From: an uncultured Trueperaceae bacterium
Lineage (GTDB): Bacteria > Deinococcota > Deinococci > Deinococcales > Trueperaceae
Assembly (NCBI GenBank): GCA_963799485.1
Contig: CAWCXJ010000003.1
Span: 1 to 52,597 of the forward strand
Length of the DNA stretch: 52,597 nt
Direction: 5' to 3'
The notes under the pieces were generated by a model that saw only the letters and a list, made by a program, of their open reading frames with translations, was not told where the DNA came from and made no database searches. Within the stretch, counting starts at the first letter, position 1, and every line of letters begins with the position of its first letter. The position numbers and the translations under genes were made by a program. This document shows positions 5,969 through 43,185 of the stretch, piece by piece.

Positions 5969-6309
5969 ACTTGGACGTTGGGGGGTGTCCCGGTCAAGGT
6001 TGAAGCGGCGACGGGGGGTTGCACGCGGGCATGACGGGTCGTGGTGACGCTCGGCGCTGTAGCTGAGGAAGATAGCGCGGCAACGGGGATAGCAAAAGCC
6101 TTGTTCGCTGTTACCGCTGTGCCCGGTGCGTCTTTGCCCGCCGTCGCCACACCCCACGACGCGCCGGGGCAGAGTTCTGTCACCGTTCCAGGGAGATTAA
6201 GCTGAAACACCCGTCCGTAAAAATCCGCTGCGTCAAAACCTGCGACCGTCAGCGCGATATTGCCTAGACCCATTCCTTCAGGACTCTTAATCGTGACTGA
6301 AAGTGACAC
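5965..6309 (-). CDS. Hypothetical virion-associated protein
   Basis: Abuts both neighbours. Confidence 0.5.
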   Translation of the reverse strand: MSLSVTIKSPEGMGLGNIALTVAGFDAADFYGRVFQLNLPGTVTELCPGASWGVATAGKDAPGTAVTANKAFAIPVAALSSSATAPSVTTTRHARVQPPVAASTLTGTPPNVQV

Positions 6310-6801
6310 CTAGAGACTCGCCCGGAACGCGTCTATATTCCAACCCACAGGGTCAATTTTTCGAGGCGCGCTAATCTCTCGATGTGTCAATACCCGCTGT
6401 GCCGGGATTTCATAGCGTATCATCAGCCCTTGCACAAGCCAACGCGTTACCTCGAGCTGCTTTTCGCCGTAGACCTCATCATTTTTGTTGTGCGACTCGA
6501 GCCCTATCCCGATGCTGTAGGCGTTCAGGCCGTTCCAGAACGTCTCGCCCTCTGCCCACTCACTTTTACCGGCGTGCCACGCTACCGCGCTGTCTGGGAC
6601 GAGTTGAAAAACACGCCCATCTTTTGACACGTAGTAGGAGTAACTCACACCCACACCGGGCCGCTGCAAATACGCGACTTCATTGTCAGCGGTCGCGCCT
6701 TCGGGTAGGCCGGAGCCGTGCAGGATTATCAGTTGCGGTGGCGACTTTCGTTTTTCGCCGTAGTTTGAAGTGTGCGTGAGGGCGTAGCTGATTAACTCCA
6801 C
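6310..6801 (-). CDS. Endolysin, N-acetylmuramoyl-L-alanine amidase (Amidase_2)
   Basis: IILHGS, AWHAG, SIGIGLE, THREIS..RKIDP zinc-amidase motifs; probable GTG start at 6801. Confidence 0.9.
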   Translation of the reverse strand: MELISYALTHTSNYGEKRKSPPQLIILHGSGLPEGATADNEVAYLQRPGVGVSYSYYVSKDGRVFQLVPDSAVAWHAGKSEWAEGETFWNGLNAYSIGIGLESHNKNDEVYGEKQLEVTRWLVQGLMIRYEIPAQRVLTHREISAPRKIDPVGWNIDAFRASL

Positions 6802-8606
6802 GTCACCAATCCCTGTGTACGCGCTTCGCGGAGCGCCATGCCAACACACCAACCGATGTCATCGCCCCGGCTCGTGATATTTTCCGGCGTGCCCCATTCG
6901 CGCTGTGAAAACTTTACGTGTTCGCCCGTGGCAAACATTAGCGAGGGGCCGACCACATCGCCCCAGGTCTTTTTGTTTGCCTCAAAATACCTTTCGCCAT
7001 CGCTACCTTTTACGACAGGACGCGTGACGAGAACGCGGGTGTAACCCCCGTGCCGCGCCTTGAAGCGGAACTTATGAACCTGCCCCTCGGCATCTTTGCC
7101 ATCTACAAACCGTTCGGCGATGGGGCAGTGGGTGTTCCAGCCAAGCGTATCGTTCCAGTTTTCTTCGTCAATGCAGCGGTACTGAAGGGGTTGCGGTTGC
7201 ACCCCGGCGTACTGCGTGTTTGCCAACTTGCGCTGAAAATCGTCAGTGGCAAACATCCCCAGGCCATAAACGCCGACCTCCATTAAAAGGGTTTGTAACA
7301 GCTTGACATATACTAGAGGCTGGTATCCGTCCTCTTTCGATGCGCCCGGCGTCATGCCCAAAACGTTGTACGCCCAGGTATAGGATTTTAGCGTTTGACC
7401 GTTTACGTCCTGTTCGACGTCGGCAATCTCATTCTCGAGCATGATGGTCATACGCGCTACCCGGTCATCGCACTGCTTTACCCGGTCGGCTGCTTTGGCG
7501 GGCAGGATGCCTTTGATTTTGTCGCCCATCTCTTTGTGAAGCTTAGCTACTACCCGCTCGTAAATGGCGGGGTGCGCCTCGGCAATTCGGCCCTGCTGCC
7601 ACATATATTTCATGATGCACACGAACGGGTGAATCACCCGGTCGGTGTAGCCCATCAGGTCGCCTCTACCCAGCAGCGCTTGAAGCAGCTCGAGCCGCAA
7701 GACAACCTCGAGGCTGTCCTCGGCTATCGTCGCAAAGTCTTTAGCCCCCGAACGCAACATCTCGAAGAACCTGTAGGCCATCCCGCCGACCGTGCCCGTC
7801 AACAGGTTCAGTTCCTTGTCGTTGCGAATGGTAGCGAGACCGTTTGCCGTACTGTTGAGCGCCTCCATACCCTTCCAGTTTGAGCGCGGTCGCCACAGGC
7901 TGATAGTGACGCCCCAGATGGTCGCGGTATCCCAAATCAGGTTTTTACGCAGCTGAATGAACAGCCGCTTCGATTCAGTGATGTGCCAGTCTGTACCAAA
8001 AACCCGCCCTATCAGCTCCAACATGAACAGGTACGCGCCCACACTCCGGCCTACCTGCTGCATCGTCGCGGCGGTGACGGCGTTGTTGACCGCACCCAGG
8101 TTGCCCGCGTGCAACGTCTTCACGTCGGGCCACGCCTCTTTCGCGTTCGCGGCGACCATTTTCCCGACAGCCGTCAGCAGCAGAAGCAGCGCGCCGGAAA
8201 ACGCGGTGAGGCTGAACTTTTCGTCCGGCACGAGCGACGACCCCACCAGAGCCGGGACGGGCGGCTTCTCGGCCTCGGCTTTCAGCTCGAGTCCCCGCTC
8301 CCAGTAGGCCGTTTCGCGCTCGATGATGGCGACTTTTTCAGCCACGGTGTTGCGAAAACTCGCCAGCGCCTGTGTCTCGGCGTCTTTCGCCTGCGCCAGA
8401 GCGGCCTCGGCCTGTACCACGGTCGCGTAGGCAGCCTTGAGCGCGTCGAAGGCGACCTGTTCACTCACCGCTTCCGTACCGCCCTGTTCGGGCCACGGCA
8501 CACCGGCAGCCAGCGCCTTTTTACGAGCGGCCTGTTGCGGCGCGTTGGCAGCGTCGATCCGGGCTTTTCCGCCCGTCCATTCCTGATTTAGTTCGGCTTC
8601 GGTCAT
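6792..8606 (-). CDS. 604-aa protein, coiled-coil N-terminus plus predicted all-helical domain
   Basis: AGGAG RBS before ATG 8606; weak similarity to the C-terminal half of 14128-16959. Confidence 0.7.
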   Translation of the reverse strand: MTEAELNQEWTGGKARIDAANAPQQAARKKALAAGVPWPEQGGTEAVSEQVAFDALKAAYATVVQAEAALAQAKDAETQALASFRNTVAEKVAIIERETAYWERGLELKAEAEKPPVPALVGSSLVPDEKFSLTAFSGALLLLLTAVGKMVAANAKEAWPDVKTLHAGNLGAVNNAVTAATMQQVGRSVGAYLFMLELIGRVFGTDWHITESKRLFIQLRKNLIWDTATIWGVTISLWRPRSNWKGMEALNSTANGLATIRNDKELNLLTGTVGGMAYRFFEMLRSGAKDFATIAEDSLEVVLRLELLQALLGRGDLMGYTDRVIHPFVCIMKYMWQQGRIAEAHPAIYERVVAKLHKEMGDKIKGILPAKAADRVKQCDDRVARMTIMLENEIADVEQDVNGQTLKSYTWAYNVLGMTPGASKEDGYQPLVYVKLLQTLLMEVGVYGLGMFATDDFQRKLANTQYAGVQPQPLQYRCIDEENWNDTLGWNTHCPIAERFVDGKDAEGQVHKFRFKARHGGYTRVLVTRPVVKGSDGERYFEANKKTWGDVVGPSLMFATGEHVKFSQREWGTPENITSRGDDIGWCVGMALREARTQGLVTWS

Positions 8607-8615
8607 GTTACTCCT

Positions 8616-8640
8616 AAAAAAAATCCGCCCGGAGGCGGCG
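8616..8640 (-). terminator. Intrinsic terminator-like hairpin abutting RBS
   Basis: CCGCC-TCCG-GGCGG-A-T8 then AGGAG. Confidence 0.65.
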
Positions 8641-8658
8641 AGAGTCTTGAAAAAGGGC

Positions 8659-8697
8659 TTGACAACTCGTGATGATTCCTGTATACTCAATTCATCA
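8659..8697 (+). promoter_or_regulatory. Consensus sigma70 promoter with overlapping inverted repeat (operator candidate)
   Basis: TTGACA 8659-8664, 17 nt, TATACT 8682-8687; TGATGA 8670-8675 / TCATCA 8692-8697. Confidence 0.85.
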
Positions 8698-8740
8698 AAG
8701 GGCAGAGGCCGAAGGGCAGCCCGAACAGAGGGGGAATGAA

Positions 8741-9019
8741 ATGACTCAGCAGTACGAAACCTACAAAAACGAGGTTCGCAAAGAATTCCTCAAAATGGGC
8801 GAGCAGTACAGGACGGCCCATAAAGAACTCGAGGCGAGAAAGTGGGAACTCGTCGCCGAAGTCAACGCGAGAGAAGGTCGCACCGGTACCAGCAATGAAA
8901 CGCTGGCCAAGGTCATGGAAAGGCTTGAACCAGGCCAGCGCAAACTCGAGGCGCTGGAGCGGCGGATCGCCGCCTTTGAAAACAAGCACTACCACGAACT
9001 CGAGGTGCTCTCATGGTAG
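8741..9019 (+). CDS. Small helical protein, anti-defence candidate
   Basis: GAGGGG RBS; first gene after the strong promoter. Confidence 0.7.
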   Translation: MTQQYETYKNEVRKEFLKMGEQYRTAHKELEARKWELVAEVNAREGRTGTSNETLAKVMERLEPGQRKLEALERRIAAFENKHYHELEVLSW

Positions 9020-9294
9020 GGCTTACCACGAACGAAAATATAGAAGGAGAGTTCGAGCCGATTTCCCCTGAGCGGGTTTTCGAGGTTCTAGAATCCGGGA
9101 GTTACAGTAGCTTCACCTTTACTGAAAGCTGGGGGCACTACCGCATGACGCTCTCGCTGCTTGAAAACGAAAAGTTTTGCTTTTCAGGCCACCACAATTT
9201 TATTTGCGAGCGCCTCCATGCGCTCGAGTTTTTGAAAAAAGAAGGTATTGATTCGAGTATTTCTCACCTGTTCGACTGCTCCGACTATCCCTAG
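9013..9294 (+). CDS. Small acidic protein, anti-defence candidate
   Basis: GAGGTG RBS, overlaps previous gene, Glu/Ser/Phe-rich, lower GC. Confidence 0.65.
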   Translation: MVGLTTNENIEGEFEPISPERVFEVLESGSYSSFTFTESWGHYRMTLSLLENEKFCFSGHHNFICERLHALEFLKKEGIDSSISHLFDCSDYP

Positions 9295-9364
9295 TGCGCC
9301 CGCATCCGCCACAGCTAGACACCCTCAGCCCTGCCCCGGCTTTATAGGGGCAGAAAGAGAAACC

Positions 9365-9649
9365 ATGAAAGAAATCGTTGTTACTCGTCATCCCGCTTTA
9401 GTCGAGTTACTCCGCGAGCGCGGAGTAGTGCAGGGCACGCCCGAAGTCATCAGCCACGCGACACCGGAGGCCGTATCCGGCGCAAGGGTCATCGGGGTTT
9501 TGCCGCTGCACCTGGCGGCACTGGCAGCCGAAGTCGTTAGCGTCAGCGTGAACGTACCCGCTGAACTGCGCGGGTCTGAACTTAGCCTCGAGCAGCTCCG
9601 GGAGTACGCCGGAGAACCCGAGACTTACCGGGTGGAGCGGATTGATTGA
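9365..9649 (+). CDS. csx16: Csx16 (Cas_VVA1548)-like protein, putative cyclic-oligoadenylate ring nuclease
   Basis: Family motifs VTRHP, VIGVLPLHLAA, VPAELRGSELSLEQL; 94 aa. Confidence 0.8.
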   Translation: MKEIVVTRHPALVELLRERGVVQGTPEVISHATPEAVSGARVIGVLPLHLAALAAEVVSVSVNVPAELRGSELSLEQLREYAGEPETYRVERID

Positions 9650-9884
9650 GACTCGATGCTCGTAGTGGCAGCTACGGGCGACCGGACGGGTATGATGCGC
9701 CCCCGGCCTGAAAACACCGCTCACGAAACGGCGACCGCGAAAGCCAGTAGCCGAGCAGCACTGCACGGTGAGCGCGTACCAGTACCGCATCTGGGTAGTA
9801 GAAGGGGACAGCCGGCCTGTAGCGGCCCCCTCACCGAGAAACCATCTACAGGAATTGCTGAGACTGCCATTAGCGACCTTGTAC

Positions 9885-9917
9885 CCCGCACGTCCTCAGC
9901 GCGTGCGGGTTTTTTTG
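9885..9917 (+). terminator. Intrinsic terminator-like hairpin inside the accessory operon
   Basis: CCCGCACG-N9-CGTGCGGG-T7 then GGAGAG RBS. Confidence 0.7.
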
Positions 9918-9924
9918 GAGAGAA

Positions 9925-10293
9925 ATGAAAGAAAAACAGTTCAGACGCATTACCGGGTTCAGGATGCGGCGTGCGAACGTCGTCGGCTACCTGGTCAGGC
10001 CGACCTCTCTTCACAAGCTCTGGAAACTTTTGTGTTCCTACGACTATGCGCCCAGTAGCGCGGCCTCGAGGGTAGAGCGCAGACAGCTCGAGGATGAGCT
10101 GTACGAGTTCGGGCGCTGGAAAAAACGCGCCTATAGCGAGATAGAGGCGCACTCAGGGCGGAGCATCTGGAGCTTCACGCTAGCAGACTTTGCCGCTGCC
10201 GACATCTCGATAGAACGGCGGGCAGGAGATCTCGCGGCACGTATCCTCGACTACGCCCGCCGCGCAGACGTGCGCTCGACGAACCATGCCTAG
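9925..10293 (+). CDS. Hypothetical protein
   Basis: GGAGAG RBS; overlaps next gene. Confidence 0.6.
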   Translation: MKEKQFRRITGFRMRRANVVGYLVRPTSLHKLWKLLCSYDYAPSSAASRVERRQLEDELYEFGRWKKRAYSEIEAHSGRSIWSFTLADFAAADISIERRAGDLAARILDYARRADVRSTNHA

Positions 10294-10528
10294 CGGCGGC
10301 GCACGGCCCGGAACGGGCGGGGAACGTGTTGGAGCGGGGCGCAAACCGAAAGGCAAGCGCCCCCTTGTTCTGTTTCAAGTGAAAACGGATGAGCGTGTCA
10401 AGGCGGCATTCGAGTTGGCCTACAAAGAAGCCAACGACGAGCTTACCAAAGGCGAGTTTCTGGAACTCGTTTTGAGAAACTCGCCTGTTCTAAAAAAGGC
10501 TTTTATTACACTCTCCGAGCCTTATTAA
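10286..10528 (+). CDS. Small DNA-binding regulator (GGxRxGAGR plus ribbon-helix-helix-like), Aca-like position
   Basis: GGARPGTGGERVGAGRKPK then a beta-strand and two helices; last gene of operon. Confidence 0.65.
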   Translation: MPSGGARPGTGGERVGAGRKPKGKRPLVLFQVKTDERVKAAFELAYKEANDELTKGEFLELVLRNSPVLKKAFITLSEPY

Positions 10529-11162
10529 TAGATTCCTCTAACGACAACTTACGGCTTCTATAAAAATGCGCGAAACTTTTGTAGTGCAATCCAAGTTTCG
10601 CGCACAGCTCCGGCATCGCGTACGATTCTGATTCAAATTCAATACGGACACTACAGCGGCGGTTATTTTGTTGCTGAGCAATTGTCGCCCATCTGACGTT
10701 ACCCGGTTCATAATTTCCGTTGTTGTCAATTCGGTCAAGCGAATGTTTGGAACTAGGTCGTTTTCCTACATCAGCGAAAAAAGCCTCAAATGAATTGGCC
10801 CACCTTTCACAAACTTTAATACCCCTATCTGCATATCTTTCGCTAAAGCGGTAATAAGGGGTACACCGTTGCTTCATTGCTATCCAAGCATTGTGTTCCG
10901 GCGTTCGGTTCAAACCATGAGAAGTAGCCCTTTCTTTTCTTAACCGCTGGTTTTCGCAACCACAACTTATTGTGTGACCACAAGTAAAATTGTTACTGTC
11001 CAACTCGACTAAATTTCCACAAGCACAGATGCAAAGCCACCACATGCAGCGGCTGGCATGATTCGTCCGTTTGCCAAGTAGCGTTAAAACAGTAAGTTTG
11101 CCGAAAGTTTTGCCGGTCAAGTCTTTGACTTTACCTAAACTTTTAGGTGGGGTATATTCCAT
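10506..11162 (-). CDS. HNH-type homing endonuclease 1
   Basis: DLTGKTFGKLTV, WLCICACG, SCGC, RYADRGIKVCERW, SLDRIDNNGNYEPGNVRWAT; AT-rich; GGGAGG RBS. Confidence 0.9.
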   Translation of the reverse strand: MEYTPPKSLGKVKDLTGKTFGKLTVLTLLGKRTNHASRCMWWLCICACGNLVELDSNNFTCGHTISCGCENQRLRKERATSHGLNRTPEHNAWIAMKQRCTPYYRFSERYADRGIKVCERWANSFEAFFADVGKRPSSKHSLDRIDNNGNYEPGNVRWATIAQQQNNRRCSVRIEFESESYAMPELCAKLGLHYKSFAHFYRSRKLSLEESINKARRV

Positions 11163-11230
11163 TTGCAGACCTCCCAGTCTGTCGCGCCACGGCAGTGATT
11201 GCGTCACTGAGTCCGTGGCTTAATTATAAC
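11130..11230. promoter_or_regulatory. Convergent promoters around two hairpins (HNH1 leader)
   Basis: Minus TATAAT 11223-11228; plus TTTACC-17-TATATT; hairpins 11166-11181 and 11186-11219. Confidence 0.55.
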
Positions 11231-11332
11231 ATTTTTAGCTTGGGACGACTGGCATAGCGAGACCGGCGGCACACAGGGAGAGTTTCTGGCGCTGGTTCTC
11301 TCCGAGTCCGAGCGCGTCAAGGGTTGGGGCGT

Positions 11333-11551
11333 CTAGGGCGCGAGAACGACCGGGAACGGGTAGCGCGCAAACACCGTCGGCCATAGCCGCTGGGCCTCGG
11401 CTATCCCCGACTCAGCCGGAAACGCCCCCAAAAATACGAACGTCGAGTGGGAGCCCAGCCTTCTGTCCATACTCCTGTCGTGCCACGCCGCCACAGTCCA
11501 GCCCTCTATGACCTGTACCCGCGCCCTCCCCTCCACCTCGGCGTCGGGCAA
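11333..11551 (-). CDS. Small phage protein or fragment
   Basis: GWTVAAWHDRSMDRR.GSHSTF; no clear RBS; in frame with 11597-11722 past its stop. Confidence 0.45.
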   Translation of the reverse strand: MPDAEVEGRARVQVIEGWTVAAWHDRSMDRRLGSHSTFVFLGAFPAESGIAEAQRLWPTVFARYPFPVVLAP

Positions 11552-11596
11552 AAAGCCGCCGTGAAGCGGGCGCGGCGATTTGTCGGGACGGGGCGG

Positions 11597-11722
11597 TTAA
11601 ATTCTCAGCAGTCCTCGTGGCCTCACGGCGATACGCACGACCGGCGCGGCCTGGGGCAGCGTTACGGCGACGGTATCGGTGTTGGCGTCCTCCCAGAGTT
11701 TGTTCAGTTCTGTGTCTGTCAT
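11597..11722 (-). pseudogene. 41-aa orphan N-terminus homologous to the start of 6792-8606
   Basis: MTDTELNKLW... vs MTEAELNQEW...; 10/26 identical, ungapped; GGAGG RBS. Confidence 0.6.
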
Positions 11723-11782
11723 AGTGCCTCCAAAAAAACATCCCGCGCGAGCGGGCTAGAGGGCGTCTGTTTTCAGGGGGTG

Positions 11783-12130
11783 TCAATCAACCCCCGGCGC
11801 AATGCCTTTACCTGTCAGGTAGCTGTACGCGCCTTCAAAGCCCCCCGGCGTGTCGTTTGTCGGGTTCGTCAGAAAGCCGTGCCCGGTCATGAGGATGTCG
11901 AGTAATGCGTTGTAGGCTTTAAGCTCGCCGACAAGTTCACTGGTCGGGTCTAAAAACTGCTGACGCCACGACAGGGTTTTGACTTTTACGAGGTACGCTT
12001 CCGTCCGCGCAATCGTCTCTTTTTGCAGCGCGTCTACAAGCACGCGGGTGTTCACACTCTTAAATGCGGGGTTGATCGGCACAACGCCTCCTAAAATGTC
12101 CGTAATGAGCTGTGGGCTGAGTTTGGTCAT
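11783..12130 (-). CDS. Hypothetical tail-region protein
   Basis: GAGG RBS; co-oriented with tail genes. Confidence 0.6.
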   Translation of the reverse strand: MTKLSPQLITDILGGVVPINPAFKSVNTRVLVDALQKETIARTEAYLVKVKTLSWRQQFLDPTSELVGELKAYNALLDILMTGHGFLTNPTNDTPGGFEGAYSYLTGKGIAPGVD

Positions 12131-12137
12131 AGCGTCC

Positions 12138-12779
12138 TCATGCGGGCACATCGAAGGTGACCGTCAACGTAACCGTTTTAGTCGGGTCGCCCTGATACGA
12201 GAGCGTCCGGTGGTTGTTGTTGTCGCCCGCGTAGCCGTTGTTATCGGGAGGCAGCCAAAAGAGACACAGGTTGCTAATCGCCGCCGAGCCGAGCGCCCGC
12301 ACCTCTTGCGCCTGTGCGGTTACGTCCACATCATACTGACTGCCAAGCGTCCAGCTTCCCGGCGGCGTCCAGGTGTACAGCGCCGTCTTGACCCGCCCAC
12401 CGCCGACATTCGGCATGGTCAACTCCGACTTACTGCTAATCCGCGTGGGGTTTAACGCCCGTTCAAACGCCCAGCGTGACGGGTGCGGCGACGATGCCCC
12501 GCCGTCCGGGTAGATATGCGCCACAGCCGACACGATGGTGGCGTTACCCGGCAGGCTCCGCCCGTTTTCAGCTGTGAGGTAGATAAAGCTGCGGTAATTA
12601 AAGCGTGTGCTGCTGATTTGCCGCACGTAGAGATAGTTCGTTATCGCCAGACCGCCCGGACTGTCCGCGCCGTCGTAGGCATACTGCGTATCGAGCCGGT
12701 CGCCGGGGGCGAATTGCAAAGTGTCGCGCACCGTGCCGCCCGAGAGCGCCACCGCCGACGCTTTGATAGGGCGCGGCAT
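12138..12779 (-). CDS. Minor tail protein (DNRLRE/CBM-like beta fold)
   Basis: YRSFI...LPGNATIVSA...YDVDVTAQAQE pattern; TAATG coupling. Confidence 0.55.
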   Translation of the reverse strand: MPRPIKASAVALSGGTVRDTLQFAPGDRLDTQYAYDGADSPGGLAITNYLYVRQISSTRFNYRSFIYLTAENGRSLPGNATIVSAVAHIYPDGGASSPHPSRWAFERALNPTRISSKSELTMPNVGGGRVKTALYTWTPPGSWTLGSQYDVDVTAQAQEVRALGSAAISNLCLFWLPPDNNGYAGDNNNHRTLSYQGDPTKTVTLTVTFDVPA

Positions 12780-13645
12780 TAGCTGATGCGCTGCAAGGTC
12801 GCGCCGCCCCACGCACCAGCCGCTAGACCCGACACGGTTGCGCGTAAAATGCTGTTCGCTGCCATCGTCAGCGGGAACGACGCCGTGACCCACGACGCCC
12901 CGGCAGGGAGCGCGGCATACTGCCAGACGACATTAGAACCGGTCACACCGCCGTAGTAACTCGGCGCGGCGTACACCCCGGCAACGCCTGTAGGGTAGCG
13001 GTAGGCGCGGTTAGCGTCGAAGTCAAAGACCATCTCGCCGTAATTGGTAACGCCCTTCGCTTCCCACACGGCGACAGTGCCGCTCTGTCCTTGCGCAACC
13101 CCTGTCACGGTACAAAGCCACCACACCGCGTTGATCCCTGGGTTGAAGTTGAAGAAAATATCACCCTGTACACCTGAAACGGTCGGCTTGGCGGTCGCGT
13201 ACCCGCGAAACGTCCGGGGGGCCGGGAAAAACCCGAAGTTCTTGGTTGTGCCGTCGGCGTAGGTAAAAATGAGGTTCCCTACATTGTCGAGCGACACCGC
13301 GCTCAGTCCTGCCGTGTTAAGGCCGCTAACGGTGCTCGTCAGGGCGTTGAGGTCGTCACGCAACCCAGTCTGGTTCGCCTCGAGGCCCGAAAGCGACGCG
13401 TCGAAGTTGTCTACTTGCTCACGCGTCGCGTCGAACTGCCCGCGCAATACCCCGAGTTCGGCGGGATTCACAGTGTTGACCATCAAGGCAAAGTTTGCGT
13501 CAACATAGGCGAGGGCTTCATTTTGTGTACCGGGAGGAATTTTCGAGCCGCCCGAAAAAGGAATCTGCGGGATAAGCGTCACGGTTCCGGCGACGATGCG
13601 AATGATTACATCGTCGATCTGCGCCCTCAGCGCGAGACTAGGCAT
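12779..13645 (-). CDS. Tail fibre/minor tail protein
   Basis: Coiled coil, then LIFTYADGT and GDIFFN..WWLCTVTG fibre-like motifs. Confidence 0.65.
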   Translation of the reverse strand: MPSLALRAQIDDVIIRIVAGTVTLIPQIPFSGGSKIPPGTQNEALAYVDANFALMVNTVNPAELGVLRGQFDATREQVDNFDASLSGLEANQTGLRDDLNALTSTVSGLNTAGLSAVSLDNVGNLIFTYADGTTKNFGFFPAPRTFRGYATAKPTVSGVQGDIFFNFNPGINAVWWLCTVTGVAQGQSGTVAVWEAKGVTNYGEMVFDFDANRAYRYPTGVAGVYAAPSYYGGVTGSNVVWQYAALPAGASWVTASFPLTMAANSILRATVSGLAAGAWGGATLQRIS

Positions 13646-14120
13646 CGTCGATCACCACTTCAACCTCGTTTTCACGCGTCAAGCTGACCTCCATTAAAAA
13701 GGCAAAGTCGGCCCCGCTACCGGGCCGGTCGGTATCGTTTTGGTCGGTCAAGAGCAGCGTCCCGTAAAGTTTTTGACTCGGCAGCTCGAGGTCGCCGTTT
13801 GTAAAGGTCTCGGCAATGGGCTCGAGCGCCAACGACTCTTTTGCTGCGCTCAGGTTCCAGGTGATCGTTTCCTCGCCAAAAAAAGACAAGGTGATATACG
13901 CCGGGGTCGGCCCGTCGGCGGCAAAAACCCCGATATGCCGCTCGCTGGTAAGTTCGCCAATAACCGGGCCGTTGAGGTACTCCCGGATTTGCATCCGAGC
14001 GTTGTCGGAAGGCAGCCAGCCCACCGCCAGCGGACTGCCTGTGTCGGCGTCTTCGGCGGTCAAGACAATCACCTCATCGCGCCCTTGCTTTAAGGGCAGG
14101 TAGTTTGCCAGTTGTGACAT
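13638..14120 (-). CDS. Baseplate/tail adaptor (LtfC/BppU-like)
   Basis: LKQG...ARMQIRE pattern; GGAGG RBS. Confidence 0.55.
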   Translation of the reverse strand: MSQLANYLPLKQGRDEVIVLTAEDADTGSPLAVGWLPSDNARMQIREYLNGPVIGELTSERHIGVFAADGPTPAYITLSFFGEETITWNLSAAKESLALEPIAETFTNGDLELPSQKLYGTLLLTDQNDTDRPGSGADFAFLMEVSLTRENEVEVVIDDA

Positions 14121-14127
14121 AAGCCTC

Positions 14128-16959
14128 CTAGATATTCTTCGGGTCGACGCCGAAACGCCGCGAGGTAATAAAGTCGATCACCTGCCGCTTGCACCAGTTA
14201 TCATCATTTTTCGTAACGGTCTGCCCGCGCAGGGGCGTGTAGTTCAGATAGATTTTGGCGATTTCGTAATAGCGCTTCAGGTTTTCCTTGTCCGGCGTCG
14301 GGTCGAACGCCACGAGTTCAAAGCCCTGCGTCTCACGAAAACGGTTTTGCAGCGAAGCAAGTGAGTCCGCCTGGTCTACCGGCGTCACCGCCGCTTGCGT
14401 CGTCACGTACTCGTAAAACTTGGTGCTCGGTTGGGTGAGCTTGAGGCCAGCGGGCCACGGTGAGCTGTAGGGGATGTCGGAACCGTCCGTAAACTTGTTG
14501 CCCGGCCCGGCAATGCGGGTTGAGAGCCTGGTGTTGCTGATCCAGCCGACTTGAGAGAAGTTGTTGGCGAGCGCCTCGGCCAGGCGTCTCATACCCGGTG
14601 CACCTAAAAGCGTCATGACGTTGATACAGTGATACAGGTCAGCCGAGTAGCGCGCAAACCAGCCGCCGTTGGTATAGGCCGCCGTCTGTGACTTACTACG
14701 CCACGACATCTGCGGTTTGGCGAGGTGATGTCCGAACATCGCCGTTTCCTTACCGTTGGGTGTAGGGGCGTAATTGATTGAAAGTTCAATCCACGAAAGC
14801 CGTTTACGGTAAGAGTTTTCCCAAAACACCGCGCGCGGGCTTGCCGGGCCTTCACGTAGCCGCGCCCACTCCCAGCCCATAAAGTCCAGGTAAAGGTGCT
14901 GAATGAAGTCATGGGCGATGTCCTCCTTCCAGTCGATCATCCCGTCCCGGAAGCGGCCCAAGCCCTTGAAGTCGGGTTCGACCGAGTTATTCGCCCGGTA
15001 GCGGTAAAACGCCAGGTATTTGTAAAACCAGTCGTAACCCCAGTCGCACAGCGAGGCAACCGACTCTTTACCCGCACCACGGTTGTAATTCCGGTTCTGG
15101 TCTAAGACCATCAGGAGCGCCACATACCCCGACAGGCGCGGCGTCAGGTCGTGCGGGTTACAGTCGGCTCCCGAGGCGGTCTTGCCCTCCTGGGTCGCGG
15201 CGGTCGTCTTGCGGACAAACAGCGGTTTCGGCATCGTCAGCCACGAGGTCTGAAAGGTCGTGCCGTCGTCGTTTTCGACCGTGACGAGTTTGTCGTAGTA
15301 CGCCTCCTGCTCGAGCGCCAGCAAGTACCGTCCTTTACCTTCGGGGTAATACTTGGACGGCGGCGGCGTGCCCTGCCCGAGCGCACGCATGGCGTTGATA
15401 TTGAGTTCAATGCGATCTGCCATGATGCCGATAAGTTCGGGCGCTTTCGTCTGGGTGTAGAGCGCCAGCAAAAAGTTCATGACAGCGGTATTAGGTCGCC
15501 CCGCCGTGTTTGCGTTCGCGTCGTTCCAGTAGGGGTTCGACGCGCCGTGAACGTAGACCTTGCCGGTGTCCAGAAAGCCCAGCGCCCCGTCGATGGCCCG
15601 CCGGTACAGGTCGCTTTGCCCGTTGACGAGCGCCGATTCCCGAAAGTTCGGGTCATAGCTGTAGCTGTTGACGGTGACGCTACCCGTGACCGTGACCGTC
15701 GCCTGCGCCGTGACCGTCCCGTTGCTGTTCGTCGCCTTGAGGATGTACGTCGTGTCGCTGTAGGGCGTCCGTTTGACGCTGCCCGATGTGACCGGCGAGA
15801 GGGCTACCCCGTCGCCGTCGGTGAGGCTCGTAGCCCCCGCCACGTTCCACGCGAGGGTGATTTCACCCCCCGCTGTGACGTTCGCAGGTAGGGCCGTAAA
15901 GCTGTTGATGACGGGCGTCCCGGCGCTCCCGGCAGGGCTGAGCGTGATGACACTTTCAAAAGTGTTCCCGCCGACTGCCTGCGCCCGGATGATGGCGGTA
16001 CTCGTGGCGCTGATGCTGCCCGGTGGGGTGTAGATGACGTTTAGGCCGTCCAGCGTCAACGTACCCGGCCCGGTGAGCGTCCAGACCGGGTTGGCTTCGC
16101 TGTTCTCGAGCGTCGCTCTGAACGTAGTCGCCGCGTCGCCCGCCCGGATAAACGCCGTTGCGGGTTGCACGGTAATCGTCGGGTGACGGTACGTGCCGAC
16201 CAAGATGCTTGCCGCGTCCTGCGCTTCGCTGGTGAGCAAGGTACGGGCAACGAGGGCAAACCCGACACTGCGGGCCTCTAAAAACTTCTCAGCGCCCCTC
16301 GGCGTCCGGTTGCCCGCTGTGCCCTGCAAGCCCCGGTACGCGCCGCCCAAGGCCATACAGAGCTTGCCTGTCCAGCTGTAGGTGTTCAGCGTCACGGTGA
16401 CGGCGGTGAGGCTGCCCAGGTGCATCAGGGTGAGCTGTTTGCTGTCCGGGCTGACTTTGAGCCAGAAACTATGCACGCCGCCTAAGCCGAGCCCTGCCGG
16501 GAGTTTCGCCGTCACCCCGCCCGACACACCTTTGTCGAACGCATTTAGGACAAGTGAGCGCTGCCCTACCGGGTCGGCGGAGAGGGTGAGCTTGGCGTAG
16601 GCGTCCAGGTCGTCCTCAGCGCCGACGCTAAAGAGCGCGAGCGAACTGTCCCCTGTACCCGGCCCCGCGTCGATAAGCGTGAACACCACGTCGAACGCTT
16701 TGGAGGCGTCCGTACCCGTCAGGTAGGGTGTGCGGATAAGGGTGCCGCCGAACGTGGTCAGCGTCCCGTCGGCGCTGGTCGTACCGGTGCCGAAGTTCAA
16801 AAGTTGCCCACTCGTATAGGGCTGGTCGTTTTGGTTAGGTGTTGGTAAATCGGCGCGGTAGACTGCAACCGTGCCTATCGGCAACTCAAGAGAAGGCCCC
16901 GTCAACCGGGACGGGGCGACATACTGCGCGAAATACGCGGCTTGACTGTCTAAAGACAT
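14128..16959 (-). CDS. Large tail protein: beta-sandwich/Ig-like domains plus C-terminal helical domain
   Basis: PVINSFTA...TLAWNV..TTYILKATN Ig-like repeat; GGAGG RBS. Confidence 0.7.
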   Translation of the reverse strand: MSLDSQAAYFAQYVAPSRLTGPSLELPIGTVAVYRADLPTPNQNDQPYTSGQLLNFGTGTTSADGTLTTFGGTLIRTPYLTGTDASKAFDVVFTLIDAGPGTGDSSLALFSVGAEDDLDAYAKLTLSADPVGQRSLVLNAFDKGVSGGVTAKLPAGLGLGGVHSFWLKVSPDSKQLTLMHLGSLTAVTVTLNTYSWTGKLCMALGGAYRGLQGTAGNRTPRGAEKFLEARSVGFALVARTLLTSEAQDAASILVGTYRHPTITVQPATAFIRAGDAATTFRATLENSEANPVWTLTGPGTLTLDGLNVIYTPPGSISATSTAIIRAQAVGGNTFESVITLSPAGSAGTPVINSFTALPANVTAGGEITLAWNVAGATSLTDGDGVALSPVTSGSVKRTPYSDTTYILKATNSNGTVTAQATVTVTGSVTVNSYSYDPNFRESALVNGQSDLYRRAIDGALGFLDTGKVYVHGASNPYWNDANANTAGRPNTAVMNFLLALYTQTKAPELIGIMADRIELNINAMRALGQGTPPPSKYYPEGKGRYLLALEQEAYYDKLVTVENDDGTTFQTSWLTMPKPLFVRKTTAATQEGKTASGADCNPHDLTPRLSGYVALLMVLDQNRNYNRGAGKESVASLCDWGYDWFYKYLAFYRYRANNSVEPDFKGLGRFRDGMIDWKEDIAHDFIQHLYLDFMGWEWARLREGPASPRAVFWENSYRKRLSWIELSINYAPTPNGKETAMFGHHLAKPQMSWRSKSQTAAYTNGGWFARYSADLYHCINVMTLLGAPGMRRLAEALANNFSQVGWISNTRLSTRIAGPGNKFTDGSDIPYSSPWPAGLKLTQPSTKFYEYVTTQAAVTPVDQADSLASLQNRFRETQGFELVAFDPTPDKENLKRYYEIAKIYLNYTPLRGQTVTKNDDNWCKRQVIDFITSRRFGVDPKNI

Positions 16960-16969
16960 AAACCTCCCC

Positions 16970-18958
16970 TCATGTCACGATTCCCGTCTGCACGCTCCCC
17001 ACGAGCGCCGTCCCTGCCGAAAGCCCCTGCACGGTGCCGTCTGCGAGTTTGGTGCCGAACAGGTTTAAGCGTCCCGACCCCGACAGGCCGGGGTTTCTAA
17101 ACACCGCTGTCTGGTCTAGCGTCGGATTTTCTAGCGTAAAGTTGCCGTCGGCGTCGCACTTGACCGAGAGGTGCATGACGCCCGCCTGGATACTCAGCGA
17201 GGCGTCGGTAGCGCTCACCGTTTGTGAGGTCGTCCCCTTACTGACACGTAAGCGCAGACCGGACGTTGCCACGTAAATCTGCCAGAAGTCCCACTTATTG
17301 CTCTGGCTCGAGCCTGAAAAAAGGATACTCAGCAAGGGCAGTTTATCCACGTCCCAGAACGCCCACGACACGGTGTAGTCACTCGCCATATTGAAGGCGT
17401 TGTCTACCGTGACGATAGAGGGGCCGTAGGGTGCGATGTTCGAGCCGTCGCCGACAACAGCGTCCCAACCGTTTGAGAAGCGGGCAAGGCCGTTTAAGAC
17501 TAAATCGCCCGCAGCGCCCGCGCTCCCGGTGTTGGCTTTCATGGTGTTTAGAGACTTGTTTACCGGGTCGTACAGCCGCCATTCGTGCGTGGTGTTCGGC
17601 GGCAAAGCGGGCAGTTCACTAAATGTGCGGAGGTCTAAGACGGTGGTGCTGCGGAGCCCTGAAACGGTTGTGGCGGTCAGCGTGACGCTGTGGTCGCCGA
17701 GCGTCAGCCCTTCTTCAGCGAGGAGCGTCAGTTTGAATATGTCGGTGGTGAAGTCCGAATCGACGACCTCGACGAGACTCGAGGCGCGTAGGGAGATATT
17801 GTCCGGCGTCGCGGTGAGCTTGATTGCTTCAGTCAGCCCGCCCGTGCGAAGGACGGTCACGAGGATTTCTTTAGGCGTGTCGATGACGATTTGGGCGCTT
17901 GCGGGTTTGAGTAGCTCGAGGCCGGGTTTGACCGGCGTCGGGGTAAAACTGCCGATGGCGGAGAGGTGCCGGTACCACGCGCCTAGTCCGTCGTTGAGTT
18001 CAGGCCACGTCAGCACCCGCTGTGTCAGAAAGGGTACACCGGACGCACCCAGACGCGGCGCACCGGGCATGAACGCGCCCTCTATCCCGCCGACGCCGCT
18101 GATATAGCCGAGACTCAGGTCGCGTTCGCTAAACGCCGGAATGTTGCCGACCGCGACCGTCCCGTGTTCCACAAGCCCGTCGGCGGCGTAGCTGTAAAAC
18201 CGCGCTTGCCGGTTCTCCTGCCACGTGAGCGCAAACAGCCGCAACACCTGCGTTGTCCCGAGTAGTGAGGTCTGCTGCCCAAACGCGTGCGCGTAGAACG
18301 TCCCGAGGCTGTAGAAAATCCCGGCAGAGGCCGCGTTCGCCTGTCCCTGCGCGCTAATCGTCGCGCCTACCGAGGCGACGCTGTAGAGCGCCGGTTCGTT
18401 GCAAAACACGCCGACGCAAAGCGAGCCTTCGGGCATCCGGGCCGGGGTCAGGAACGCGTGCAGGGCGCTACTGTCAACCGTGTTGACAATCGGTGCGGCG
18501 GCGCTCGACTTGAGCGCATACGGCACTTTGCCCGTCACCCGGTCGAGTAGGGGGTGCTGCCAGCGCGGGCCGGTCGGGTAGACGGTCGCCTCTAAAGTGT
18601 TCCGGGTCGCGCTTTGCACCGCGCCGCGTGTCACCGGCAGCATCAGCCCGTCGGGTCGCCACACTTCAGCGGCGTAGAGCAGAGCGTCCTCTATCCCCTC
18701 AACCCGGCGTTTGACGCTACGCCCTACCCGGTCGTCTATCACAAGGTTGAAATCTTTGCTCGCGGGTTCCGGGTCGCTAAACGCCGACGCCGGAAGCCAT
18801 GTACCGGGGCCAAAGCCGACCATCGAAGTCTCGAGGCTCCCCACTGTGTACTCGGGTTCGTCCATCGCCACGTTGTAGACCGTGCCGCCGACGGTGACAA
18901 TGGCGTGGTCTTCAATATCGGGTGGGCGGTAGACGCGGAGTTTGCTGAGGTCAATCAT
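16970..18958 (-). CDS. Tail tip protein with lectin/LamG-like modules
   Basis: Second gene after the tape measure; beta-rich modules. Confidence 0.6.
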   Translation of the reverse strand: MIDLSKLRVYRPPDIEDHAIVTVGGTVYNVAMDEPEYTVGSLETSMVGFGPGTWLPASAFSDPEPASKDFNLVIDDRVGRSVKRRVEGIEDALLYAAEVWRPDGLMLPVTRGAVQSATRNTLEATVYPTGPRWQHPLLDRVTGKVPYALKSSAAAPIVNTVDSSALHAFLTPARMPEGSLCVGVFCNEPALYSVASVGATISAQGQANAASAGIFYSLGTFYAHAFGQQTSLLGTTQVLRLFALTWQENRQARFYSYAADGLVEHGTVAVGNIPAFSERDLSLGYISGVGGIEGAFMPGAPRLGASGVPFLTQRVLTWPELNDGLGAWYRHLSAIGSFTPTPVKPGLELLKPASAQIVIDTPKEILVTVLRTGGLTEAIKLTATPDNISLRASSLVEVVDSDFTTDIFKLTLLAEEGLTLGDHSVTLTATTVSGLRSTTVLDLRTFSELPALPPNTTHEWRLYDPVNKSLNTMKANTGSAGAAGDLVLNGLARFSNGWDAVVGDGSNIAPYGPSIVTVDNAFNMASDYTVSWAFWDVDKLPLLSILFSGSSQSNKWDFWQIYVATSGLRLRVSKGTTSQTVSATDASLSIQAGVMHLSVKCDADGNFTLENPTLDQTAVFRNPGLSGSGRLNLFGTKLADGTVQGLSAGTALVGSVQTGIVT

Positions 18959-20595
18959 AAACGACCAATCGTGGTGCGTATTTCGCTTTGCCGCGTCGTG
19001 GTGTCGATGGCCAAACGGATACGGTCAGCTAGGGCCGCGTCACCCTCACGGCTAGGTGAGCCGAGGTCTACCACCGTACTAATGCCATTCGTGCGGTCAA
19101 ACGCATAGCGGTATTCAGCGGCGTCGGTCATGCCAGTCTCGAGTTTGACTTTAGGCAGCGGCGGGGCGTAGTAGCCGACCCGATTACGGTCTTGGGCGCG
19201 GCGCAAAATGAGCTGCACGGGTTCTTGTGCAGGGGTGCGGAATTCGGCGATAGCGGCAGCGTCTAGGAGAGAGGTATTAAGGGTCAAAATCTTAAAGTCT
19301 TTGATAATGAAATTTGTCGGTGCATCGGTGGAGTTGACAAAGAATCTTACTAAATTCATGGTATAAGTACGCCCATTAGCCGCTAAAAATGGCTTCACAG
19401 GAGGAAATTTTAGCTCTATTGGAGTAAAACTGCCCTCAGTGTAATTTGGTTGGAAAACCGCTTTTTCATCCCCAGTGTAACGTTCCTGGCCCTGATCATC
19501 TAAAAAACCGAACCTGGCAGCTATGAAAGGTCGTGCCATCCCATAACTGAGACGATAATTAAAACTTAGTCCGCAAATATTTTTAGATGAGGCCAAAGGA
19601 AAAATCTGGAATCCCGCAGAATTTTGGTTTTGGGTATAAGATCCGTTTGAAACGGTAAATCCTCCGTAAATATCTACTCTGTCAATCGCTTCAGGGACAA
19701 GCAAAGAGACTCCAACATATGTGCGCGCTATTACTTTGCTGAACAGGTTGTGCGCTCCCTTATCAGGAATCGAAAGGTACGTCAGTGTTGACCATTGCAG
19801 GTTTTGGGTCAACGAATAATCAGTTTGGCCTGACTCAATTCGTAACCCGTCACTCGGCTCATTCCCGATAACCCACAGCACCGCCGTCACCGTATCGTCT
19901 GCTTTAATCGGCAGGTCGGTATAGTCCTCGGGGTAATACGGCACGTCAAGTGTGCCCGTCAGCTCTTTGAAAAAGACAAAGCCGCGCCCGTCAACGCCGT
20001 AGCTAATCGTGCGGCCCGCGTCAGCGACGCTTTGCCCTAACAGGTTCAGCGCTTCGCCTAACTGGATACCGGGCTGTTCAAAGCCGCCCTCGAGCGTGGT
20101 CGCCGTCTGAGGGAAGTCGATTTCATTAAAGTTCAGCGCCGGGTGACGCAAGCGCCTTACAAGGTCTTGCGCGATTAAGGCCGGGTCTTGTGCGGGATAG
20201 CTTACGGCGTCGGTCACAGTACCGTCTAGTAGGTATTCGGCGTCAGCTACATAATCCCGGACGCCGCCCGGTAGCTTTTTCGCTGCCCAGCCCTGCGTAA
20301 TCGCGCCGTAAAACACATCTTTCCAGCCGTCGCCGTCGTTTAGCCGAAACACGATGATTTCACCGCCGGTACACGCCACGAGATGAGGGAACCCGGTAAA
20401 AGTGAGCGTCTTGACCGCGCCACCGGGCGCAACCGCACACGCTACCTCACGGTCGAGGCCGTTGTACTTGTACGCCGAAAACTGGTTGAGGACTTGCGTC
20501 CCGTTCTGCGAGAGGATTACCAGGTGAAAGTCCTGTATGTCCTGTGAGGGCGGCTGTGGCAACACCGCCCGGTTGAGTGCAGCAAGTTGGGTCAT
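18955..20595 (-). CDS. Baseplate hub/tail tip protein
   Basis: Follows the tape measure (ATGA overlap); YGVDGRGFVFF hub-like motif. Confidence 0.65.
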   Translation of the reverse strand: MTQLAALNRAVLPQPPSQDIQDFHLVILSQNGTQVLNQFSAYKYNGLDREVACAVAPGGAVKTLTFTGFPHLVACTGGEIIVFRLNDGDGWKDVFYGAITQGWAAKKLPGGVRDYVADAEYLLDGTVTDAVSYPAQDPALIAQDLVRRLRHPALNFNEIDFPQTATTLEGGFEQPGIQLGEALNLLGQSVADAGRTISYGVDGRGFVFFKELTGTLDVPYYPEDYTDLPIKADDTVTAVLWVIGNEPSDGLRIESGQTDYSLTQNLQWSTLTYLSIPDKGAHNLFSKVIARTYVGVSLLVPEAIDRVDIYGGFTVSNGSYTQNQNSAGFQIFPLASSKNICGLSFNYRLSYGMARPFIAARFGFLDDQGQERYTGDEKAVFQPNYTEGSFTPIELKFPPVKPFLAANGRTYTMNLVRFFVNSTDAPTNFIIKDFKILTLNTSLLDAAAIAEFRTPAQEPVQLILRRAQDRNRVGYYAPPLPKVKLETGMTDAAEYRYAFDRTNGISTVVDLGSPSREGDAALADRIRLAIDTTTRQSEIRTTIGRL

Positions 20596-41932: not shown

Positions 41933-42439
41933 TCATCGGCGGTAAAACGTCCCTTCTAACGTACAATCCTCGAGAATCCTTAAAGCTTTTTTTCCGAAAC
42001 CCGCCATAAGGCTGGGCTCAAAACCGCCGACCGCGCCACCTTTACGTGGCCTTTCGCTTTCGCCATCCGGCAGCACGTACTTAACCCGGCCCCGAATTAA
42101 AAACAGCGCATCGGGCGGGTAATCGTGCAAAAAAGCGCCGTCAGTATTTCCGCGAACAAGTGCGATACCGGAACCGTGCGCGTGAAGCTTGGCTATCCAT
42201 TTCGTCTTTTCGCCGCGTGTCCAGGGAGGGTTGACCCAGACGAGGCCGTGCCAAGGCAGCTCAAGGCCGTTTTCGCCGCGCTGCAACGAGTAAGTCCGAC
42301 CCACGAAGGGCGTCATAGGATAAACACAATCCGGGGCGCAGGGGTCAAGGTCAAAGTGCGCGTTTAGACCCAAACCGATAGAGAGCGGGGTATAGCGAGA
42401 AACTTCTTTAGAGTGACCAGGCATTATTTGCTTGTTCAT
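41933..42439 (-). CDS. Phage DNA N6-adenine methyltransferase (Dam-like)
   Basis: RYTP, FDLDPCA, NGLELPWHGLVWVNPPW, GRVKY; ATG overlaps the HNH2 stop. Confidence 0.88.
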   Translation of the reverse strand: MNKQIMPGHSKEVSRYTPLSIGLGLNAHFDLDPCAPDCVYPMTPFVGRTYSLQRGENGLELPWHGLVWVNPPWTRGEKTKWIAKLHAHGSGIALVRGNTDGAFLHDYPPDALFLIRGRVKYVLPDGESERPRKGGAVGGFEPSLMAGFGKKALRILEDCTLEGTFYRR

Positions 42440-43095
42440 CGCCGCCGACTCCGGGTAAATGGTGCGGTAAGTGCTCGCTCTGCATCCCAACCGCGACGTA
42501 AACGCTGACCAACTGAGTTGGGCCGCAACCTTAGACGCCGCTCCCAAGCGTCAACCGTGAGTGTTAGCCCTTGAAAAGTGATGAAACGGTTCCGACGCGT
42601 GTTGCACGCCTGTTCTTGCCGAGTTGCCCAGCGACAGTTTTCAGGTGAATAGGGGCCGTCGTTGTTATCGCGTTCAAGCGTGTGCCCTTCCGGGCGCTCT
42701 CCCATATCGGCTAAAAAGTTTTCAAAACTGTGGAGCCAGCGGTCACAAATCTTAATACCTCGAGCCCCATAATCGGCATAACTTTTACTGTTTTGGTTTA
42801 AGCAACGCTTTTTCATACCGCTATACACTTCATATGTACGTGAAGCAGATAGACCGTGGGTCGTATTAGCGCCGGAGACAACCTCACCCCGCAAACAGCC
42901 ACAAGACTTAGTGTGACCGCTACGCAATTTTGTCCCCTGAACCAATTTTGTTACACCGCAGTCGCACTCACAAAGCCAGTACAACGTTCTTCTGGCATTA
43001 GCAAATGGTTCTAGCGCTGTTAATCTTCCGAATTTTTGACCACGGATGTTTACGGAATAGCTTTTAAGCTCAACGACATGAGTATAATCCGACAT
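42436..43095 (-). CDS. HNH-type homing endonuclease 2 (paralogue of HNH1)
   Basis: GQKFGRLT, WLCECDCG, SCGC, YGARGIKICDRW, TLERDNNDGPYSPENCRWAT; AAGGAGG RBS. Confidence 0.9.
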   Translation of the reverse strand: MSDYTHVVELKSYSVNIRGQKFGRLTALEPFANARRTLYWLCECDCGVTKLVQGTKLRSGHTKSCGCLRGEVVSGANTTHGLSASRTYEVYSGMKKRCLNQNSKSYADYGARGIKICDRWLHSFENFLADMGERPEGHTLERDNNDGPYSPENCRWATRQEQACNTRRNRFITFQGLTLTVDAWERRLRLRPNSVGQRLRRGWDAERALTAPFTRSRRR

Positions 43096-43165
43096 GTGAC
43101 CTCCTTGTAGGTCGCCGCGCCGGGAGTGTTGCAAGCACGTCCCGGCTGACTCGTCTATCATAGCA
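43083..43165. promoter_or_regulatory. Convergent promoters around two hairpins (HNH2 leader)
   Basis: Minus TGcTATGAT 43157-43165; plus TATAAT 43083-43088; hairpins 43098-43113 and 43119-43146. Confidence 0.55.
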
Positions 43166-43185
43166 CGTCCAGCACGCAAAAACTC

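Follow-up and report, generated by a model that had tools for sequence, protein, structure and literature searches.

The 52.6-kb contig CAWCXJ010000003.1 of an uncultured Trueperaceae bacterium (hereafter C3; assembly GCA_963799485.1, 3.66 Mb in total) is in its entirety the window analysed here, and it carries a phage genome whose long genes lie on the minus strand. Between two of its late genes, one encoding a protein of 604 amino acids (aa) and the other a protein of 122 aa, lies an island in which an accessory operon with a homologue of Csx16 runs counter to the late genes, and in which a gene for a free-standing HNH endonuclease, HNH1, follows the operon. The plus-strand open reading frames (ORFs) of the island encode 92, 93, 94 (Csx16), 122, and 80 aa. 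HNH1 is convergent with the last of these, and the two overlap by 23 nt. Beyond HNH1 lie the orphaned 3′ end of the 80-aa gene, a truncated gene of a family that we refer to as X, and an orphaned second start of the 604-aa gene family. We identify HNH1 as a discrete insert of low G+C content (GC) that lies within an older accessory operon, in the final small gene of the latter, and the Csx16 island is not its cargo.

Several observations delimit the HNH1 cassette. GC drops to 0.35 to 0.5 only between ~10420 and ~11240 and is 0.6 to 0.75 on both sides; within the 80-aa gene, it falls from 0.7 to 0.4. The 80-aa ORF reads continuously from its resident 5′ part into this low-GC 3′ end, with a break after ..RVKAAFELA, where the low-GC ending KEANDELTKGEFLELVLRNSPVLKKAFITLSEPY replaces the native end. 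The native end is found on the far side of HNH1. In a related phage element on contig C2 of the same assembly, the counterpart of the 80-aa gene encodes 94 aa; residues 1 to 86 of the C2 protein are 42% identical to the C3 80-aa protein, and its residues 62 to 93 match 11235–11330 (+), across HNH1, with 75% identity (tblastn, E 3e-10). The sole outside match in a search with the 80-aa protein was P0158, a 76-aa protein from another phage contig of ~57 kb. P0158 agrees with the translated 5′ part of the C3 gene at 39 of its residues 1 to 45, and with the translation of 11244–11336 at 29 of its 31 C-terminal residues. Because P0158 joins both halves, it represents the uninterrupted allele. The inserted 3′ end aligns only over the GEFL block and retains the motif T.GEFL.LVL.

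HNH1 is not alone in this genome. Within 8.5 to 11.8 kb it is the only HNH gene; the next paralogue, HNH2, lies at 42.4 to 43.2 kb and is 36 to 40% identical to it. By eye, the leaders of the two genes are alike, with TGnTATAAT or TGnTATGAT, a hairpin, and GGAGG, and this design differs from the T-run design of the two 604-family starts. HNH2 replaces the start of a methylase-like gene (a tentative name, the Pfam Dam match having an E value of 0.16 only), and the empty site is present in the same assembly, at 14491–14510 of C2. The old start and its leader, 71/79 identical to C2, now form an in-frame fusion with the HNH2 ORF. A new start lies at 42439; it matches C2 at 34/79 positions and overlaps (ATGA) with the stop codon of HNH2. 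The first ~200 nt of the invaded gene are foreign; beyond them, identity to C2 climbs to 87 to 100%. Thus, filled and empty alleles at one defined site are available for HNH1, with P0158 as the uninterrupted allele, and for HNH2, with the empty site in C2. The original prediction had described HNH1 and HNH2 as paralogues with the same leader design, which we confirm, and as cassettes that replace gene starts, which is true of HNH2 only, the replaced part at HNH1 being the 3′ end of the 80-aa gene. The accompanying idea that the HNH element repairs its target is borne out in that a replacement for the displaced part is supplied, but the target of HNH1 is the 3′ end of the small gene and not the start of the 604-aa gene.

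Table 1. Features of the interval between the two late genes, its flanks, and the HNH2 locus (positions in C3)
Feature	Position	Strand	Description
Amidase endolysin	6310–6852	−	ORF
604-aa late gene, no assigned function	6792–8606	−	Family-canonical N-terminus; starts MTEAELNQEWTGGKARIDAANAPQQA
Leader A	8607–8646	−	Hairpin 8641–8625, T8, AGGAG, 4 nt, ATG
Sigma-70-like promoter	8659–8687	+	TTGACA-17-TATACT; 11/12 consensus match only; faces the counter-oriented operon
Two small operon genes	8741–9019 (92 aa); 9013–9294 (93 aa)	+	No family found
Csx16 homologue, 94 aa	9365–9649	+	PF09652, E 3.3e-19, 69.3 bits (cut-off 25)
Third hairpin/T7/GGAG/ATG junction	9885–9927	+	In the operon, directly 5′ of the 122-aa operon gene
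122-aa operon gene	9925–10293	+	No family found
Hybrid 80-aa gene	10286–10528	+	Resident 5′ part to ~10420; cassette-borne recoded 3′ end ~10421–10528
HNH1 homing cassette	~10421–11234		~814 bp, GC ~0.43; recoded target 3′ end, HNH1 ORF, and leader
HNH1 endonuclease ORF, 218 aa	10506–11162	−	phrog_374, E 5.9e-60; phrog_3377, E 7.5e-40
HNH1 leader	11163–11231	−	TGtTATAAT 11231–11223, hairpin 11219–11187, GGGAGG 11175–11170; motifs by eye
Orphaned native 3′ end of the small gene	11235–11336	+	LAWDDWHSETGGTQGEFLALVLSESERVKGWGV, then stop
5′-truncated gene of family X	11333–11593	−	C-terminal ~80 residues remain; 72-aa ORF 11333–11551
Orphan start of the 604-aa gene family	11597–11722	−	Starts MTDTELNKLWEDANTDTVAVTLPQAA; homologous part ~11645–11722
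Leader B	11723–11762	−	Hairpin 11755–11742, T7, GGAGG, 4 nt, ATG
122-aa late gene	11783–12151	−	C2 homology stops at its stop codon (island boundary)
Methylase-like gene	41933–42439		C2 counterpart 14442–14951
HNH2 cassette	42372–43186	−	~816 bp relative to C2; after codon 17 of the methylase-like gene

The C2 element, which lies in reverse orientation and shares patches of 75 to 97% DNA identity with C3, is the natural comparator for the interval 8204–11793 and the sole DNA-level relative compared. Identity to C2 is 83% over 6829–8204 and 82% over 11793–19289. Between these stretches, the only C2 DNA match is 80 nt long (11250–11329; 77%). At the same boundary, C2 carries another counter-oriented operon (C2 48571–49612; 8572–9613 of locus L003), with ORFs of 73, 112, 82, and 94 aa and with neither an HNH gene nor an orphan start. 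The small gene, 80 aa in C3 and 94 aa in C2, is the only one that the two islands have in common. Variable upstream genes followed by a shared small gene form a layout like that of anti-CRISPR (acr) and anti-CRISPR-associated (aca) genes, with the small gene as a candidate regulator for which there is a weak ribbon-helix-helix lead only: the 80-aa protein has no Pfam match, its AlphaFold2 model has a pLDDT of 58, and the Atlas lead is at rank 23 with a score of 0.91. Alignment scans with the small gene gave weak matches only, resting on a GAGRKPK motif. The C2 operon lies behind a TTGACA-17-TATTAT site, read by eye. The comparison of empty with filled sites in relatives that had been called for thus yields an empty HNH2 site in C2 and an uninterrupted HNH1 target in P0158, but at the island itself C2 holds a different island.

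Csx16 is described in a preprint as a ring nuclease specific for cyclic tetra-adenylate (cA4) that is present in 2 of 28,114 phage genomes (bioRxiv 10.1101/2024.09.24.614671). The match of the phage protein to PF09652 (Cas_VVA1548) covers positions 2 to 90 of 91; with the stricter NCBIfam model TIGR02620 it scored 31.5, below the cut-off of 46.35. It is the only Csx16 copy in the assembly. We found 287 homologues, with PF09652 in all among the matches listed. At least 80 uncultivated viral contigs encode a homologue, so that Csx16 is not a rarity among phages. A tblastn search of the phage collection with Csx16 gave no match, nor did a search of 50,697 phage records with the island DNA; a sequence search of the PDB returned spurious designed-ankyrin rows only, with no passing stretch, and these were discarded. 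The host encodes Cmr2/Cas10 of a type III-B system (contig C13, 2200–3618, locus L088; 144.6 bits, cut-off 79.4). A small protein of the Csx16 family encoded by a phage gene, in a host with a type III system, is a combination that recalls viral ring nucleases (AcrIII-1). Judged by sequence, the phage Csx16 most likely degrades the cA4 signal of the host type III CRISPR system and is a plausible anti-type-III-CRISPR gene.

The relation of this operon to HNH1 can be read from composition and from association. GC of the operon is 0.51 to 0.63, the same as in the rest of the phage. In none of the 80 viral Csx16 loci was an HNH1 relative, or any other gene of the island, found within 4 kb of Csx16. 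Because the operon has a normal GC, the 5′ half of the small gene is unconverted, the C2 island lacks an HNH gene, and the association with Csx16 is 0 of 80, we conclude that the Csx16 operon is not cargo of HNH1. The operon itself looks assembled from two modules. A gap of 275 bp (9650–9924) between Csx16 and the next gene holds no convincing ORF and no Rfam match, and at its end lies the region's strongest hairpin/T7 site, which directly abuts GGAG and the ATG at 9925.

On the other side of HNH1, the orphan ORF starting MTDTELNKLWEDANTDTVAVTLPQAA has 41 codons and then a stop. The original prediction had placed two versions of one gene start on either side of HNH1 and the Csx16 operon, and both were found where it had put them: ungapped, the orphan is identical to the full-length start MTEAELNQEWTGGKARIDAANAPQQA at 10/26 positions. 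It is closer to the outside homologue P0004 (13/26) than to the full-length start of its own genome. The 604-aa protein has four outside homologues (30 to 38% identity) whose N-termini align with it, and three of them (P0004 to P0006) start similarly, with MTQPELDKLWNDAKERINLVNLPQQS, MNQTELQAEWDKAKAQINTVNKTKQA, and MQDSKLQALWDESRARIVPVNETKQV. The N-termini of these three served as reference for scoring every 26-mer that begins with ATG in any of the six reading frames of the genome (33,106 in total); the true start scored 159 and the orphan 128, and the next best 26-mer scored 60. Only these two starts exceed 60, which establishes the significance of the predicted similarity and led us to reject a chance origin of the orphan. 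On the strength of its sequence, we regard the orphan as a genuine remnant of a gene start that belongs to the 604-aa family. The DNA of the two 26-codon starts is identical at 42/78 positions, distributed over the codon positions as 18/26, 15/26, and 9/26, and blastn detects no DNA similarity between the copies. The codon-position pattern points to long-diverged, separately evolved coding alleles and not to a recent tandem duplication. Against C2, the 604-aa protein is homologous only from residue ~105, and its N-terminal domain is therefore an exchange module. The C2 counterpart of the gene (C2 49613–51608; L003 9614–11609) consists of two ORFs, one of 518 to 521 aa and one of 145 aa that is coiled-coil-like and unrelated in sequence.

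The leader that had been predicted to precede both starts is present at 8606 and 11722 on the minus strand, each start having upstream a G+C hairpin, T7 to T8, GGAG, and a 4-nt spacer. In all of C3, the T-run/GGAG/start pattern occurs at three sites only (9925 on the plus strand and 11722 and 8606 on the minus strand), all within the interval; C2 has none, and 18 pattern positions occur in the other 3.5 Mb. As a class, terminator-like sites are not enriched, with 10 sites in 6000–13000 compared to 8.6 ± 2.9 in shuffled sequence, and the terminators named below are therefore putative. No Rfam family matched in 8400–12000.

The gene into which the orphan start runs is truncated. The stretch 11336–11593 matches the C-terminal ~80 residues of 568 proteins (E ≤ 1e-3) with a typical length of 105 to 190 aa. 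These proteins, for which no Pfam, PHROG, or NCBIfam family was found and no Atlas score exceeded 0.80, form family X and have the motifs YFGC..GH ... GWT.LAFWDRSVD.R.GSHSTF ... FARY.F (P0007 to P0156); the conserved N-terminal YFGC..GH block is absent from the fragment. The stop codon of X overlaps that of the orphaned end of the small gene (CTAG), like a native convergent pair. Family X occurs in at least 27 viral contigs, and none of the 27 viral X loci holds any gene of the island. Because the orphan start is joined to the middle of an unrelated gene, the junction is nonhomologous, unlike that of a precise homing cassette.

Altogether, we consider it probable that three layers, each of a different age, are nested in the interval and make it a mosaic. 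In this model, a counter-oriented accessory operon with its own promoter would occupy a hot spot flanked by the 604-aa gene and the 122-aa late gene; in view of the Csx16 homologue, this island is probably devoted to anti-defence. An older, nonhomologous and out-of-register join of two diverged relatives, one with the order late gene–terminator–start and the other with the order X–island–terminator–start–604-aa gene, would have created the orphan leader, the orphan start, and the truncated X, leaving leader and start in one dead and one live copy. We infer this recombination route because the orphan start is significant, the copies show the 18/15/9 pattern and no blastn similarity, and the truncated X lies directly behind the orphan. 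Later, a free-standing HNH cassette of ~0.8 kb from a low-GC donor would have homed into the last small gene of the island, where HNH1 is presumed to cleave. The differently spelled 3′ end of the small gene would have come along with the cassette, so that the gene stayed whole and the intact target site was lost, and the native 3′ end would have been displaced downstream as an orphan.

Some observations weigh against this model. The order of events is read from composition alone, and only one DNA-level relative, C2, lies behind the comparison. No relative with a plain late gene–start arrangement, i.e., an empty site, was seen: DNA relatives with an empty 604-aa site were found neither in IMG/VR (protein search and two alignments) nor in genome contigs or Joint Genome Institute (JGI) metagenomes, the phage collection contained none by DNA or protein, and none of 127 genomes of the same family matched in a search for relatives of the 604-aa gene. 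The orphan start and the X fragment share a reading frame, with one TAA (11597–11599) between them; such an arrangement has a one-in-three chance, and the two could once have been expressed as a fusion. HNH1 matches no Pfam HNH family at E ≤ 1 and, by sequence, no PDB chain at E ≤ 1, and its catalytic motif was seen by eye only. Finally, the assembly that encodes the nucleases also contains uninvaded alleles of both HNH targets (C2 48571–48855 and C2 14442–14492). This could mean that the nucleases are silent in lysogeny or inactive, that they do not accept these alleles as substrates, or that the two contigs derive from different cells; the contamination estimate for the assembly is 4.63%.

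HNH1 could itself account for the interval if a cut in the conserved small gene of a rival phage was repaired from the closest homology at hand, which for C3 crossed with C2 would be the 122-aa gene and the body of the 604-aa gene, such that a 3.6-kb block with HNH1, the Csx16 operon, and a gene start was co-converted and the orphan was left as the scar of an imprecise transfer. C2–C3 homology does end at 11793, at the 122-aa gene, and resume at 8204, in the body of the 604-aa gene, with a single 80-nt match (77%) in between; blastn misses the 5′ part of the small gene because of its divergence. At HNH2, co-conversion extends over ~200 nt, and Barth, Dunham and Seed report that fragments of genes, and cargo, lie next to genes for homing endonucleases (10.1101/2023.03.23.533998). 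However, the composition of the cassette is sharply unlike that of the island, which indicates a later arrival; the resident 5′ part of the small gene, with its 39/45 identity to P0158, is unconverted; the identity of the flanks to C2 is a uniform 82 to 83%, with no recent tract; this HNH is absent from within 4 kb in all 80 viral Csx16 loci; and the truncated X is left unexplained. We regard such a transfer as unlikely. In its general form, the idea is that the HNH enzyme specialises on the one conserved gene of otherwise variable anti-defence islands and that repair drags the whole island across, together with the Csx16 ring nuclease and with the leader and start of the adjacent late gene. 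Because rival phages would lack homologues of the flanking cargo, each cut that succeeds would need repair from distant homology. We give this version, too, little credence. If it were true, a single selfish nuclease would be a vehicle for anti-CRISPR genes, and the orphan start would be a fossil of the transfer.

A single HNH1-driven cassette of ~3 kb, bounded by the two starts, targeting the start of the 604-aa gene, and carrying the Csx16 operon as built-in cargo, as originally proposed, is very improbable. The two starts and their leaders are truly homologous, HNH1 lies between them on the strand of the supposed target gene, and HNH2 demonstrates that the family can replace a gene start. 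Yet HNH1 is flanked by the halves of another gene, for which an uninterrupted allele is known, the foreign composition is confined to ~0.8 kb, and the truncated X separates the orphan start from HNH1; the C2 island without HNH and the missing association of Csx16 with HNH in 80 loci point the same way. HNH1 thus has a split target of its own, which contradicts this model, and the claim that it drives a 3-kb cassette with anti-CRISPR cargo is not supported. It is barely conceivable that the orphan start resembles the family by chance or is a small gene with a function of its own. Such a view could appeal to the mere 10 of 26 residues shared with the full-length copy in the same genome and to the lack of a blastn match between the copies, but the orphan ranks second of 33,106 start-anchored 26-mers (128, with the next best at 60), is identical to P0004 at half of its 26 positions, and shares its leader architecture with the true start, and its ORF stops at 41 codons, leading into a foreign gene that is truncated.

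The nested mosaic has counterparts among known systems. Intronless homing by free-standing phage endonucleases, with co-conversion of the flanks, is known from SegF, SegG, and MobE of phage T4. HNH1 resembles these in that a free-standing nuclease gene lies beside or inside its target, the target allele is diverged, and the flanks are inherited together. To our knowledge, the classical T4 cases do not include a duplicated orphan fragment together with a supplied replacement end. Hendrix and colleagues described how phages evolve as mosaics through illegitimate recombination out of register, and how “morons” act as transcription units. The island is like a moron in being an autonomous promoter-to-terminator unit between late genes, with a junction at a gene boundary and the scar of a misaligned join; unlike the mosaic scars that we are aware of, the scar here keeps a whole leader of terminator, Shine-Dalgarno sequence, and start, fused to a truncated foreign gene.

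The anatomy of the cassette itself equals that of the gene hybrids formed by mobile ORFs (mORFs) in fungal mitochondria, which are reported for atp6 of Allomyces macrogynus and for atp6, atp9, cox2, and nad3 of Glomus (PMC3630166). As in these hybrids, an endonuclease ORF and a foreign C-terminal part are inserted at the 3′ end of a gene, and the native C-terminal part is kept downstream and is nearer to the allele of relatives than the inserted copy is. In contrast to the mORFs, HNH1 is of the HNH type, resides in a phage, is convergent with its target and not in frame with it, and has invaded not a core respiratory gene but a small accessory one; HNH2 is the mirror case at a 5′ end. Homing endonuclease gene (HEG) islands are characterised as bracketed by at least two nuclease genes and as consisting of DNA that is highly conserved between distant phages (10.1101/2023.03.23.533998). 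Nuclease genes at exchange boundaries, fragments of cargo genes nearby, and neighbours that ride along are common to HEG-islands and the locus studied here, which differs in having one nuclease, no conserved block, and accessory rather than essential cargo. The HNH cassettes are therefore endonuclease cassettes that rebuild their target, a known kind, here nested in an ordinary mosaic scar, and the suggestion of an undescribed system does not hold. A non-exhaustive search of titles and abstracts found no paper on such a target-rebuilding cassette design for phage HNH genes.

The HNH family offers further cases. Relatives of HNH1 in viral contigs number 549, and we scanned 80 viral loci of such relatives for duplications between the flanks, using the 73 that had 600-bp flanks. 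Seven of these loci equalled or exceeded the score of the HNH2 control (57), compared to 1.3% of 600 cross-locus pairs; the scan is insensitive, the positive control HNH1 reaching only a p value of 0.088. The systematic search for diverged duplicates that the original prediction had suggested was thereby partly rewarded: three of five inspected loci have an orphan fragment and an intact gene, and the other two are paralogous neighbours. In L026, an orphan start lies ahead of a 921-aa gene; in L074, the orphan start is antisense; and in L005, an orphan 3′ end is convergent, as at HNH1. Among the seven top scorers, L040/L041 were rejected as orphan-fragment cases because they are tandem HNH paralogues, and L034/L035 because their flanks hold full-length paralogues. 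L013 has a low-complexity appearance. A third paralogue of the family, at 6753–7283 (+) of C2 (locus L085), is 41 to 44% identical to HNH1 and showed no flanking duplicates in the scan (score 34).

One phage genome thus holds two clean, internally controlled target-rebuilding cassettes, HNH1 at the 3′ end of its target and HNH2, with stop/start coupling, at the 5′ end, of a design that is known from fungal mitochondria and little described for phages. With both filled and empty alleles at hand, the two HNH targets are useful natural pairs. The locus also illustrates that a duplicated gene start beside a nuclease gene need not be the work of the nuclease, and that nested events should be separated before “cargo” is claimed. 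Finally, the phage-encoded Csx16 homologue, facing a type III-B system of the host, is a testable anti-CRISPR candidate.

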